Shown here: piece by piece, positions 24,526 through 27,777 of the stretch
Layout of the letters: each line of letters starts with the position of its first letter
Position numbering within the stretch: position 1 is the first letter of the stretch
DNA from: an uncultured Gemmatimonadales bacterium
GTDB taxonomy: Bacteria; Gemmatimonadota; Gemmatimonadetes; Gemmatimonadales; Gemmatimonadaceae
DNA length: 64,000 nt
Direction: 5' to 3'
NCBI GenBank assembly: GCA_963701965.1
Contig: OY969695.1
Coordinates: 3,168,001-3,232,000, forward strand
The notes under the pieces: model-generated
What the model was told of the DNA's origin: nothing
Database searches by the model: none
The model's input: only the letters and a program-made list of their open reading frames with translations
Made by a program: the position numbers and the translations under genes

Positions 24526-25819
24526 GGCATCGCTCCCAGAGAGACTGAACGCTCATGCGAAGGTCGAGCAGTGGCGGCGGCAGCAATCGCGCCGGAGTAC
24601 CGAGCCCCTCAATGTCGGCGATGAGGGGATTGTCGCGACCGGTGGCCAAGTCGGCCGCCAAGAGCCCCGCGATCGTGCCCTTGGTGATGCCGACGCCATT
24701 CTGACACACCGCTAGATACACATGGGGCGCGCTTCGGCCAAAGGCCTGGGCGCGATTGCTCGACATGGCATCGTAGCCCACCCAGGTGTACTGGATCGTG
24801 CCAGACGGCAGCATCGGAAAGCGCGCGGCGAGACGTGCCGCGTGTCGGCGGCGGACGTCGCCCACGTCGACGTGCGCCGGCGCGAAGTTGGACGTGAACT
24901 GCACCGTCTGGCGGAGAAACAATCGGCGATCCTGCGTCAACCGCATCGCGGTGCCGCCGTTGACATGTACCGGCGTCAATCCCCAATCGCGATCCGTGCC
25001 CATCTGCTGGAGCTCACCGTCGGTCAAGGGCCGGGTGAGACTGGCGTAGATGGCATAGTTGAGCAGCTGGTCACGGCAAAAGCCGAACTCCCGCACAAAC
25101 CCATTCGTCGCCAGAATGACGGCGTCCGCCGTCAGCGATCCGTGCGGCGTGGTGAGGCGAATGCCGTTCTGGTGCTCGAACTCGATGACCGGGGAGTTCT
25201 CGTAGAGCACAACATTCGCCGGGAGCGTGTCGGCCAGCCCTCTCACCAGCGCCGCGGGATCCACCAGGACGCATCCCGGCAGATGCAGCGCCGCCGCGAA
25301 ATAGGTCGTCCCAATGCGATCGGCGAGCTCGCTCCGGTTGAGCCACGTACAGGGCTCACCGAGTATCTGGAGCTCGTCGGCGCCGGGCTCGAGGGAGCGC
25401 GCTTTGCCCTTGTCGGTGATCGCCGCGTGATACTTGCCGCGCCGGCTCCAATGGCAAGCGATCCCGTGATGCCGGATGATGCCTTCGAGAGACGAAAGCG
25501 CGGCGCGATTCAGCCGGACGTGCCGCTGCAGCGTGGCCAGGTCCGACGTGCCAATGTTGTAGGGCACGTCCTGGGCGATGCCGGAATTCCGGCCGGATGT
25601 GCCCGCCGCGACCTCCAACGCTTCGACGACCGCGATGCGGTCCTGCGGCCGGTTCTCGGCGAGACGCCGCGCCGCCGCCAACCCCGCAAAACCGGCCCCG
25701 ATCACCACGAACTCCGCGTGATGGGACCCCGCGAGGGCGGGGGTCGCGCGACGCGGCGGCAGAATCATGGTCCAGCCGTTGGGGCTATCGTTGCGCGGCA
25801 GCGTCGTGATGCGCGGCAT
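24503..25819 (-). CDS. FAD-dependent oxidoreductase, DAO/PuuB-like amine or amino-acid oxidase
   Basis: VVIGAGFAGL, GTSGRNSG, CQNGVGITKGT. Confidence 0.9.
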   Translation of the reverse strand: MPRITTLPRNDSPNGWTMILPPRRATPALAGSHHAEFVVIGAGFAGLAAARRLAENRPQDRIAVVEALEVAAGTSGRNSGIAQDVPYNIGTSDLATLQRHVRLNRAALSSLEGIIRHHGIACHWSRRGKYHAAITDKGKARSLEPGADELQILGEPCTWLNRSELADRIGTTYFAAALHLPGCVLVDPAALVRGLADTLPANVVLYENSPVIEFEHQNGIRLTTPHGSLTADAVILATNGFVREFGFCRDQLLNYAIYASLTRPLTDGELQQMGTDRDWGLTPVHVNGGTAMRLTQDRRLFLRQTVQFTSNFAPAHVDVGDVRRRHAARLAARFPMLPSGTIQYTWVGYDAMSSNRAQAFGRSAPHVYLAVCQNGVGITKGTIAGLLAADLATGRDNPLIADIEGLGTPARLLPPPLLDLRMSVQSLWERCRVQYEQH

Positions 25820-26808
25820 CAGGGACCCGGTGCGTGTGCCAGGAGACCCGTCACCGCTTCAATGATCGCCTCGGTCGTGGGCACGACTCGCTCTTCCATC
25901 CGTGGGCTCATGGGGATCGGCACTTCCAACGCGCCCAGTCGCTTGATGGGCGCTTGAAGGGAGGAGAAAGCGATATCGGCCAGGCTCGCGGCGATCTCGC
26001 CCCCAATGCCGCCGATGGTATTGGCCTCGTGCACGATGAGCACCCGCCCGGTCTTGCGGACCAATGCCGCGATCGTGTCCATATCGAGTGGCCGCAACGT
26101 CCGAGGATCGACGACTTCGACGGAGATGCCATCGGCCGAGAGCACGCCTGCGGCGACGAGGGCCCGCTGCACCATCGCGCCGATCGCGACGACCGTGACA
26201 TCGTCGCCCTCACGCTTCACCTCGGCGGAGCCCAGCGGAATCGTATAGTCGGTCGTGGGAACGGGTCCCCGCACGCCATACAGCCGCTTCGGCTCGAAGA
26301 AGACGACCGGGTTGTTGTCCCGAATGGACGACTTGAGCAGGCCTTTGACGTCGTAGGGGGTCGATGGCATCACGACTTTGAGCCCGGGCACATGGGCGAA
26401 CATCGCCTCATTGCTCAGCGACATCAGCGGGCCGCCACTCGGCCGGAAACCGGACGACACGCGGAAGACCATTGGGGCGCTGGCGCGACCGTCATAGAGG
26501 TAGGCCATCTTCGCGGCCGACGTGACCACGTGGTCCATGGCCGTGAGCATGACGTCGGCGAGTCCCATCTCCAGCACCGGACGAAATCCCCGGACCGCGG
26601 CGATGACGGAGGCGCCAACGAATCCGGGCTCGGAGATCGGCGTTTCGATCACGCGATCCGGACCGAACGCCTCCATGAGGCCGAACGTGGCGCCGACGAG
26701 CCCACCAAACACGCCCACATCCTCTCCCATCAAATACACAGTCTGGTCTCGGCGCATCTCCTCGGCCAACGCCTCGGTGATGGCTTCGCGATACGAGATC
26801 TCACGCAT
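25819..26808 (-). CDS. ThDP-dependent 2-oxoacid dehydrogenase E1 beta-like subunit (atypical active site)
   Basis: MGEDVG, TPISE, PGLKVVMPSTPYD, VEVVDPRTLRPLD; QHSQ replaced by LMSL. Confidence 0.93.
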   Translation of the reverse strand: MREISYREAITEALAEEMRRDQTVYLMGEDVGVFGGLVGATFGLMEAFGPDRVIETPISEPGFVGASVIAAVRGFRPVLEMGLADVMLTAMDHVVTSAAKMAYLYDGRASAPMVFRVSSGFRPSGGPLMSLSNEAMFAHVPGLKVVMPSTPYDVKGLLKSSIRDNNPVVFFEPKRLYGVRGPVPTTDYTIPLGSAEVKREGDDVTVVAIGAMVQRALVAAGVLSADGISVEVVDPRTLRPLDMDTIAALVRKTGRVLIVHEANTIGGIGGEIAASLADIAFSSLQAPIKRLGALEVPIPMSPRMEERVVPTTEAIIEAVTGLLAHAPGP

Positions 26809-26817
26809 TGCGTCGTC

Positions 26818-27777
26818 CTAGCGGTAAACGTGAGTCAAACCAACCTCCGGGGCGTCCAACGGCGATCCCTCCGCGAACCCGATACAATCCCTGACGGTGG
26901 CGAGCGCCGCATCGTCGATCGCCTGCAACGTGTGCGCATCGGCCAACCCGAGCGTGGTGAGCCGGTTGCCGAGACGGGTGATGGGGCAGCGCGCCTTCCA
27001 GTGCGCCAGTTCTTCATCGGAGCGCGAGGATTCATTCGGCGCCAGCGTCGAGTGCGCGGTCCAGCGATACGTCTGACACTCGATCAGGCTTGGGCCCTGC
27101 CGGCTACGCGCCCGGGCAATGGCGCGGTCCATGACCTCACCGATGGCTTCGACATCGTTCCCGTCGACCAGTTCGCCTGGAATGCCGTACGCCGCCGCCC
27201 GCCGCCACACCGACCCGCCGGCCGTCGTCTTCTCGATCGGTGAGGACTTCGCGTAGAAGTTGTTCTCACAGACGAAGATGACGGGAAGCTTCCAGATCGC
27301 GGCCAGGTTCAGCCCCTCGTGAAAGTCGCCGCGGTTCGCCGCGCCCTCGCCGAATATCGCGACCGTCACTTCGTCGGTTCGGCGAAGTTTCGAGGCGAGC
27401 GCCGAGCCCGCTCCGAATGGAATGATTGCCCCCACGATCGACGTGGTGCTCAGCACGCCCTTTGCCAGGTCACCGACGTGAAAGATCGGCATGCGTCCGC
27501 GGGTGGGACTATCGGCCGTTCCATAGAGTCCCGCCATGATCTGGCGCGGCGTGAAGCCCCGGACGAGCAACGTGCCGACGCCGCGATAATGTGGAAACAC
27601 GAAATCGGAGGGGCGCAGCTTGTAACTTGCGGCCACGCCAACGGCTTCTTGGCCTATTCCCGCATGGAAGTTGTCGAACTTCCCGGACTCGGACAGCGTG
27701 ATCGCGGCCTCCTGGAAGCGCCGCGCCAGCACCATGACCTCGAAGATCTCGAGTAACTGCTCGTCGGTGTACACCAT
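26818..27777 (-). CDS. ThDP-dependent E1 alpha-like subunit
   Basis: GQEA, HYRG, GEGAAN...CENN ThDP motif, TYRWTAHS. Confidence 0.93.
   Translation of the reverse strand: MVYTDEQLLEIFEVMVLARRFQEAAITLSESGKFDNFHAGIGQEAVGVAASYKLRPSDFVFPHYRGVGTLLVRGFTPRQIMAGLYGTADSPTRGRMPIFHVGDLAKGVLSTTSIVGAIIPFGAGSALASKLRRTDEVTVAIFGEGAANRGDFHEGLNLAAIWKLPVIFVCENNFYAKSSPIEKTTAGGSVWRRAAAYGIPGELVDGNDVEAIGEVMDRAIARARSRQGPSLIECQTYRWTAHSTLAPNESSRSDEELAHWKARCPITRLGNRLTTLGLADAHTLQAIDDAALATVRDCIGFAEGSPLDAPEVGLTHVYR

Follow-up and report, generated by a model that had tools for sequence, protein, structure and literature searches.

The 64-kb window considered here (the whole stretch of DNA that was analysed, corresponding to G000:C1:3168001-3232000, where G000 is the host genome, and with coordinates given as window positions unless another sequence is named) carries on its minus strand an operon that opens with the α and β subunits of an E1-type thiamine diphosphate (ThDP) enzyme, continues with an oxidoreductase of the DAO family that depends on flavin adenine dinucleotide (FAD), and closes with a hydrophobic protein of 375 residues, while the gene for a LysR-family regulator is divergent (Table 1). 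E1 α and β chains are a textbook subunit pair, in which thiamine catalysis is classically coupled to lipoate through a histidine of the β chain; in the window protein, that histidine is replaced by methionine. Judged from its sequence, the pair is an E1-type ThDP enzyme belonging to a conserved clade that lacks the histidine, and it probably works without lipoate.

The α chain matches Pfam E1_dh with an E-value of 8e-75, and the β chain matches Transket_pyr and Transketolase_C with E-values of 6e-35 and 9e-39. The β chain also exceeds the cut-off of NF006667 (341 versus 321 bits), and the α chain falls under both equivalog cut-offs for the E1α of pyruvate dehydrogenase (PDH), at 263 versus 411 bits for TIGR03181 and 269 versus 394 bits for TIGR03182. 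The start codon of the FAD oxidoreductase overlaps the β stop codon by a single base; no solved relative of that oxidoreductase was found at E≤1e-5, and no Pfam or NCBIfam match was found for the hydrophobic protein. All five genes recur in unchanged order, at 78-89% identity, on an independent metagenome contig, L081. Because the reading frames are intact and the ratio of non-synonymous to synonymous substitution (dN/dS) against L081 is 0.12-0.19 for all five window genes, a pseudogene was rejected. A place in a phosphonate pathway, at which matches to Phn_aa_oxid, phn_lysR, PhnA and PbfA had hinted, was dropped because all of these weak scores lie far under cut-off.

Table 1. Genes of the operon and diagnostic residues of its two E1-type subunits
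Feature	Position	Strand	Remarks
E1α-type ThDP diphosphate-binding subunit, 319 aa	26818..27777	-	Pfam E1_dh; member of the matched α clade
E1β-type pyrimidine-binding subunit, 329 aa	25819..26808	-	Pfam Transket_pyr + Transketolase_C; His-less clade
FAD-dependent DAO-family oxidoreductase, 438 aa	24503..25819	-	family match; same place in L081
Hydrophobic 375-aa protein, likely uptake permease	23398..24525	-	final gene of the operon
LysR-family regulator, divergent	27826..28746	+	family match; same arrangement in L081
α Lys177, at the Geobacillus Ile206α position touching the thiazolium	27247..27249	-	52/52 of the α clade
α His242 (= Geobacillus His271α), kept	27052..27054	-	52/52 of the α clade
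β Met129 (codon ATG), at the Geobacillus His128β position	26422..26424	-	gapless alignment to solved structures
β Val86, in place of Phe85β stacking on the ThDP pyrimidine ring	26551..26553	-	Val in 74/74 of the clade
β Arg122, basic residue in the loop preceding the lost His	26443..26445	-	74/74 of the clade; Gly in 44/46 other hits
β Glu60, cofactor-activating glutamate, kept	26629..26631	-	alignment
β Gln285, acidic position in Geobacillus (Glu285)	25954..25956	-	alignment

E1β chains without the active-site histidine

An earlier, sequence-only reading of this DNA had placed methionine at the histidine position of the β chain, in an alignment without gaps, and phmmer comparison with solved chains (Pyrobaculum 1ik6, Geobacillus 3duf and 1w85, and Thermus 1um9) bears this out for the whole loop. 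That reading had also been right that the activating glutamate, the α GEG..NN motif and the α YRxxxHS histidine are intact (Glu60 of β; Glu144 with Asn173, and His242, of α), and that the change is not a simple read error: chance, a read error or a private mutation are excluded because the independent contig L081, 89% identical, carries methionine at the same position, and because this residue is shared by 22 of the 74 proteins of the clade described below. Structure prediction returned the E1β fold (an AlphaFold model built on a 50-row alignment, with a mean predicted local distance difference test score, pLDDT, of 86, and a template-modelling (TM) score of 0.90 to 1w85_B at 42% identity), with the altered loop, residues 123-135, modelled at low confidence. 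A look-up in the Atlas yielded only generic E1β clusters.

The best 120 of 7991 hits to the β protein were examined, and the score falls after the 76th. Seventy-four of these 76 best hits (the query included) share Gly-Leu at positions 82-83 and define the clade; the remaining two, P0016 (internally duplicated, with histidine) and P0076 (a canonical front joined to a clade-type back, with glutamine), look duplicated or chimeric, are likely to be assembly artefacts, and were set aside from the counts. At position 129, the 74 chains carry glutamine in 51 cases, methionine in 22 (a count that takes in the query and one 99%-identical copy), threonine in one and histidine in none, while the next 44 of 44 hits all retain histidine. 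Val86, Gly82, Leu83, Leu37 and Arg122 are each found in 74/74, and Glu60 is present in all 76 best hits. The changes that run through the clade beyond the loss of the histidine, which the sequence-only reading had missed, comprise Gln81→Gly, Phe82→Leu and Phe85→Val (in Geobacillus numbering) and a new Arg122 in β, together with a new Lys177 in α.

A β tree of 105 rows was built from 27 chosen protein hits, four paralogues from the host's own genome, and locus rows (the His-less ones of at least 290 residues and roughly one in three of those with the histidine). All 32 His-less rows fall on one branch with a support of 99 (quick IQ-TREE with the motif columns; FastTree without them). Methionine occurs in three separate subgroups of the clade and therefore interchanges with glutamine; it is a derived, minority state, with glutamine as the majority state. 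Across six pairs of clade α and β sequences, dN/dS is 0.06-0.14, and the clade is under purifying selection; the loss of the histidine is a conserved trait of the clade and no private mutation. The check suggested with the sequence-only reading, whether His-less homologues form a clade without neighbouring E2 (acyltransferase) genes, is answered in the affirmative by these figures and by 0 of 12 loci described below; close homologues neither keep the histidine nor adjoin E2, and that reading thus withstood its refuting condition at the level of sequence. One locus, L090 (positions 1-951), encodes a His-bearing E1β with isoleucine at the stacking position and lysine at 285, a possible intermediate; its placement as sister to the clade was not adopted, having a support of 97 with the motif columns (IQ-TREE) and being unresolved without them (FastTree).

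The acidic residue at β285 (Glu285 in Geobacillus) is one that we take to be a contact for the subunit-binding domain of E2; a literature search for confirmation found no paper on a docking role of Glu285/Asp289 or on outer-loop mutants. In the 74 clade chains this position holds Lys (54), Gln (6), Arg (6), Glu (4), Ala (2) or others (2), and Asp or Glu stands there in 75 of 87 β chains at loci that bear an E2 gene. A more distant comparison set was formed by the best 150 representatives at 50% identity, in which 141 of 152 aligned segments retain the histidine, and the stacking position, 86, is aromatic (F/W/Y) in 143 of 151. No clade member appears among these 150 (top score 442 bits, versus at least 540 for clade members), and a His-bearing sequence probably stands for the clade in that clustering. 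Seven distant representatives (P0281, P0303, P0318, P0329, P0340, P0370 and P0393) are E1β chains without the histidine, apparently through separate losses outside the clade, although some of these rows may be misaligned. The second β chain of another tandem E1 arrangement (L142, 2744-3850; L159, 2061-3272) lies on a long branch and has an odd motif at positions 80-86, with the histidine kept.

The α chains that accompany these β chains carry changes of their own. The α clade comprises 52 of 120 α hits, those lying above a clear gap in identity to the α chains upstream of His-less β genes. Lys177, mapped to Geobacillus Ile206α by counting from the motif asparagine (Asn202/Asn173) and by alignment to the Thermus chain, is found in 52/52 of the α clade versus 6/68 of the others (those six lying directly under the gap, at 51-54% identity), and in 9 of 9 α chains drawn from clade loci. 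The outer-loop tyrosine that precedes a conserved arginine is present in none of the 52 versus 51 of 68 others. The diphosphate-Mg motif GDG/GEG...NN is kept (Asp or Glu, and Asn, in 52/52), and Arg65, His100, Asn148, Asn173 and His242 are invariant in the α clade wherever the sequence covers them. By these alignments, both subunits have been rebuilt, with changes in α matched to the loss of the histidine in β.

Neighbouring genes and host genomes

Two scans of the collection gave 160 loci, from about 600 candidates each; the 12 clade loci among them are a sample of what is at least that number. Among the loci listed, a gene for an E2 catalytic domain, a lipoyl domain or E3 (the flavoprotein component) is found at 0 of 12 His-less β loci, and an E2 or lipoyl gene at 85 of 148 His-bearing loci. 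When only loci with at least 3 kb of downstream flank are counted, the figures for E2 or lipoyl genes are 0 of 7 versus 61 of 87; L001 is the same as L087 and L002 is nearly the same as L089, and the seven therefore represent five independent loci. Genome-wide searches likewise returned no E2, lipoyl, GcvH or E3-like match within the 64-kb window, in agreement with the earlier claim that none lies near the pair.

The His-less pair stands alone in the window, L081 and L002/L089; in L001/L087, L083 and L086 it has another α/β pair, one with the histidine, immediately upstream. The resulting tandem cassettes, α1-β1(His)-α2-β2(His-less) without E2, span 4978-8975 in L001, 4993-8969 in L083 and 3-3979 in L086; their β1 chains form a well-supported branch of their own, with Gly at 82 as in the clade and with Phe85 and Asp/Glu285 kept. 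A DAO-family oxidase stands beside the pair in the window and in L081. D-2-hydroxyacid dehydrogenases stand beside it in L083 (in the same direction) and in L002/L089 and L088 (convergent), a divergent DeoR gene is found at L001 and L083, and a transketolase-like gene lies near the pair in L002/L089. L083 further carries a haloacid dehalogenase type II gene above its cut-off, and L086 carries isopropylmalate/tartrate-dehydrogenase-family, fumarase-like, succinate-dehydrogenase-like and Ldh_2-like genes, as well as a sulfolactate-dehydrogenase-like gene that falls under cut-off. The theme that these neighbours would seem to share is one of families able to make 2-oxoacids, and no single substrate emerges from them. 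Two close relatives of the oxidase (P0406 and P0410) have longest contigs of the same lengths (12583 and 80675) as Met-type β or α hits (P0012, P0141 and P0145), which hints at a wider linkage.

Several further features of the window lie around the operon. A CoA-acylating methylmalonate-semialdehyde dehydrogenase (37027-38529, plus strand; above the cut-off of TIGR01722, at 726 bits), 9 kb from the E1 pair, could accept an aldehyde product; it was not seen at the other clade loci. An α/β-hydrolase and a pyridoxal-phosphate-dependent gene resembling D-threonine aldolase/DSD1 follow the LysR gene (28413-30883, plus strand), where L081 carries different genes. A SusC/SusD-like pair (minus strand) and a divergent nucleotide pyrophosphatase/phosphodiesterase (plus strand) occupy 17408-23429, the latter gene converging on the end of the operon. 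By eye, a TonB receptor and an ABC uptake unit are seen at 30890-37014 (minus strand), in which a response-regulator/PAS-like gene (32706-33656) separates the binding protein from the permease of that unit, and a hydrolase-like gene at 39874-41077 (plus strand) runs in two overlapping frames near 40800, a possible frameshift.

The host genome is a single contig of 5.1 Mb, 95% complete, in which genome-wide searches located elsewhere three E2 catalytic domains, five biotin/lipoyl domains, two E3 genes above cut-off and one GcvH; the E2, E3 and GcvH genes are all distant from the window. Four other E1β-type genes are present, all with the histidine, and two of them are α-β fusions without an adjacent E2 (G000:C1 3678237-3680516 and 435988-438252), in which Asp285 is kept as well. 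The clade is rare. In the host's phylum, 401 genomes included a single carrier, that of the window itself; in the order to which G402 belongs, 301 genomes included two, G401 and G402; and in the class to which G401 belongs, 401 genomes included one. All of these carriers were already known, and no further one came from the other 400 genomes of that phylum or the other 400 of that class. No match at 60% identity or above was found in 620 matching plasmid records. Named clade protein hits come from uncultured Alphaproteobacteria, Magnetovibrio sp. and Burkholderiaceae, and no cultured host was seen among the clade hits.

Candidate reactions

The likely consequences of these substitutions can be approached through published mutants of the Geobacillus enzyme (PMC2663715). 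There, H128Qβ retained 100.2% of activity with the dye 2,6-dichlorophenolindophenol (DCPIP) and 3.8% of complex activity (Table 3 of that report), and still permitted E2 binding, while H128Nβ retained 0.9% and 0.7%, and H128A is cited as similarly damaging as H128N; the crystals of the H128Q and H128N enzymes were without a cofactor analogue. I206Aα displayed 1331% of DCPIP activity and 35% of complex activity. Phe85β is described there as stacking on the pyrimidine ring, Phe82 and Phe85 as part of a nest around His128, and His128 itself as a possible steric hindrance to a second pyruvate. Positions 128β and 206α, both probed by these mutants, are both changed in the window pair, and the nest around His128 appears from the alignments to be lost together with the histidine in the clade. 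The tie between the QHSQ histidine and reductive acylation, on which the sequence-only reading had drawn, agrees with the H128 mutants. Given that, in that account, H128Q forms the enamine yet barely acylates lipoate, the majority state of the clade is the substitution that separates the two half-reactions; methionine is similar to glutamine in length, and non-polar.

A non-oxidative 2-oxoacid decarboxylase, receiving its substrate from the FAD oxidase and yielding CO2 and an aldehyde, is the tentative prediction favoured here, and is held with slightly less than even confidence. The permease would import an amino compound, which the FAD enzyme would oxidise to a polar or anionic 2-oxoacid; the α and β chains would assemble as α2β2 and bind ThDP despite the lost stacking ring; and this enzyme would decarboxylate the 2-oxoacid, forming an enamine that, instead of undergoing acyl transfer, would be protonated by α His242 or Lys177, so that the aldehyde leaves. 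Lys177α and Arg122β may hold a second anionic group of the substrate, in a pocket that would be wider now that Gln81, Phe82, Phe85 and an aromatic β38 are gone. In favour of this reading count the single His-less branch, the lack of E2 and lipoyl genes at its loci, the H128Qβ and I206Aα results, the altered outer loop and position 285, the purifying selection, and the recurrence beside the pair of families able to make 2-oxoacids.

A number of observations weigh against this reading. The published mutants span Gln, Asn and Ala at 128, and the methionine of the window lies outside them; Asn or Ala, moreover, cripples the first half-reaction too (PMC2663715), and without the stacking phenylalanine the cofactor could be bound less tightly. 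Position β285 is a soft marker, with Asp or Glu in only 82 of 148 distant representatives, and the nearest relative, L081, retains Glu285. Neighbours vary between clade loci, no aldehyde dehydrogenase was found as a conserved neighbour of clade pairs, and the 2-hydroxyacid dehydrogenase of L002/L089 and of L088 lies on the opposite strand, facing the pair. The three E2s, two E3s and GcvH of the host could matter in trans, and an E2 is present elsewhere in each of two incomplete Rhodospirillales genomes that carry the clade. Finally, 26 of 87 well-flanked His-bearing loci are also without an adjacent E2, as are the fused His-bearing E1 genes of the host. The earlier use of the missing E2 and E3 genes as a pointer therefore stands in part: the genes are absent, and their absence is weak alone, because three E2s lie elsewhere and two His-bearing E1 genes of the same genome have no E2 neighbour either.

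A more far-reaching version of this decarboxylase proposal, speculative and on balance unlikely, envisages a lipoate-free E1 family whose site was rebuilt around the two new basic residues and which decarboxylates an anionic 3-substituted 2-oxoacid (of the sulfo-, hydroxy- or phospho-type), releasing an aldehyde or, by internal elimination, an acid or acyl-phosphate. The family would then fill a gap in a catabolic route that has not been described, with the FAD oxidase as its entry point here and a 2-hydroxyacid dehydrogenase as that in marine bacteria; if true, this would be chemistry not described for the E1 scaffold.

An unlikely alternative, which still deserves to be weighed, is a lipoate-independent carboligase, or an acyloin or ketol lyase, in which a carbonyl acceptor takes up the enamine, or a ketol is cleaved to give two carbonyl products. 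The PDH-like pairs AviB1/B2, Pau11/12 and TxnB3/B4 are described as attaching a pyruvate-derived two-carbon unit to sugars (PMC4425429 and PMC5659172). Since His128 may hinder a second pyruvate (PMC2663715), its loss and the changes Gln81→Gly, Phe82→Leu and Phe85→Val could together make room for an acceptor, and the DeoR regulators of L001 and L083 and the transketolase-like gene of L002/L089 lie nearby. However, the operon of the window includes a gene resembling amino-acid oxidases, and none for sugar metabolism or biosynthesis.

It is rather improbable that the pair is an oxidative E1 working in trans, with the host's E2/E3, GcvH or another electron acceptor, and with α His242 or Lys177 as proton donor. 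Such a role would fit the E2s found in all three clade genomes tested, the invariance of α His242, the E2 binding of H128Q noted above, the Glu285 of L081 and the commonness of E1 genes without an adjacent E2. Against it stand the drop of complex activity to <5% upon His128 substitution (PMC2663715), the retention of the histidine in most distant representatives, the joint alteration of loop and docking positions in the clade, and the lack of a lipoyl gene at any of the clade loci listed.

Quite improbable is an internal-redox enzyme, in which a 3-substituted 2-oxoacid (of the hydroxy-, sulfo- or halo-pyruvate type) would be decarboxylated and its leaving group expelled, giving acyl-ThDP without an oxidant and freeing an acid or acyl-phosphate. 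PDH is reported to decarboxylate 3-fluoropyruvate with elimination of fluoride (PMC11777429), and other ThDP enzymes make acetyl-ThDP from hydroxypyruvate, which is nevertheless no PDH substrate (PMC8015787). A departing anion or phosphate could be held by the new Lys and Arg, and the haloacid dehalogenase of L083, the sulfolactate-dehydrogenase-like gene of L086 and the D-2-hydroxyacid dehydrogenases would suit such substrates, but these hints are scattered, mostly under family cut-offs and not common between loci, and neither an acetate kinase nor a phosphotransacetylase was seen next to the pair. A partner that binds ligands or has no catalytic role, such as the structural or regulatory half of a mixed tetramer with the preceding His-bearing pair of L001/L087, L083 and L086, would accommodate the loss of both His128 and the stacking phenylalanine, but is the least probable of all, given that the window, L081 and L002/L089 hold no such second pair and that Glu60β, the Mg ligands, Arg65α and His242α vary little or not at all.

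The sequence-only reading had proposed a lipoate-independent decarboxylase, lyase or carboligase; of this, lipoate independence is upheld as the probable case, with a decarboxylase as the favoured candidate among the three.

Comparison with known E1 systems

A full-text search, with most subscription papers and supplements lying outside it, found no paper on a His-less E1β clade; PMC12141560, PMC8146983 and bioRxiv 10.1101/2022.05.17.492373 contributed nothing decisive. What makes the clade of interest is that a substitution uncoupling the half-reactions in the laboratory has been fixed by nature in a whole clade, together with matched changes in α. If this is confirmed, the clade would represent a catabolic ThDP enzyme that is built on the E1 scaffold and acts by itself, and it could serve to study how components of dehydrogenases are repurposed. 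Those of its genes that now bear the name of a pyruvate or acetoin dehydrogenase subunit would be wrongly annotated. An E1 site that is open and does not acylate is also of interest for C-C bond biocatalysis.

E1-scaffold chemistry beyond the formation of acyl-CoA is in itself not new, because PDH-like pairs already serve sugar biosynthesis: AviB1/B2, Pau11/12 and TxnB3/B4 are proposed to transfer a unit of two carbons that comes from pyruvate rather than to form acyl-CoA (PMC4425429 and PMC5659172). Those pairs belong to Streptomyces glycoside clusters, whereas the window pair, compared with them by description, shares its LysR-controlled operon with genes for an oxidase and what is likely a permease. 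The Geobacillus H128Qβ mutant carries the same residue as the clade majority (51 of 74 chains); it is, however, one laboratory change (PMC2663715), whereas the clade holds naturally selected changes on both subunits, and the window has methionine.

The nearest hits outside the clade, at 53-58% identity, are proteins resembling the acetoin dehydrogenase E1 (AcoA/AcoB), and several clade proteins have been automatically annotated as such. These outside hits carry an AAQHSQ loop, a motif presumably linked to AcoB, and all 44 keep both the histidine and the phenylalanine, of which the clade keeps neither; His-bearing loci, unlike those of the clade, mostly adjoin E2.

Structurally, the window pair is placed by its predicted fold and domains within the family of α2β2 E1 components that serve the dehydrogenase complexes for pyruvate and for branched-chain 2-oxoacids (Geobacillus 1W85/3DUF, Thermus 1UM9, human 1NI4/1DTW), with which it has the activating glutamate, the Mg-binding motif and the α histidine in common. 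It differs from them in β His128→Met (mostly Gln in the clade), Phe85→Val and Gln81→Gly, in α Ile206→Lys, in the loss of the outer-loop tyrosine, and in the absence of E2 and E3 from the clade loci listed. The pair lacks the residues that define a lipoate-acylating E1, and is not to be filed as a pyruvate or acetoin dehydrogenase.

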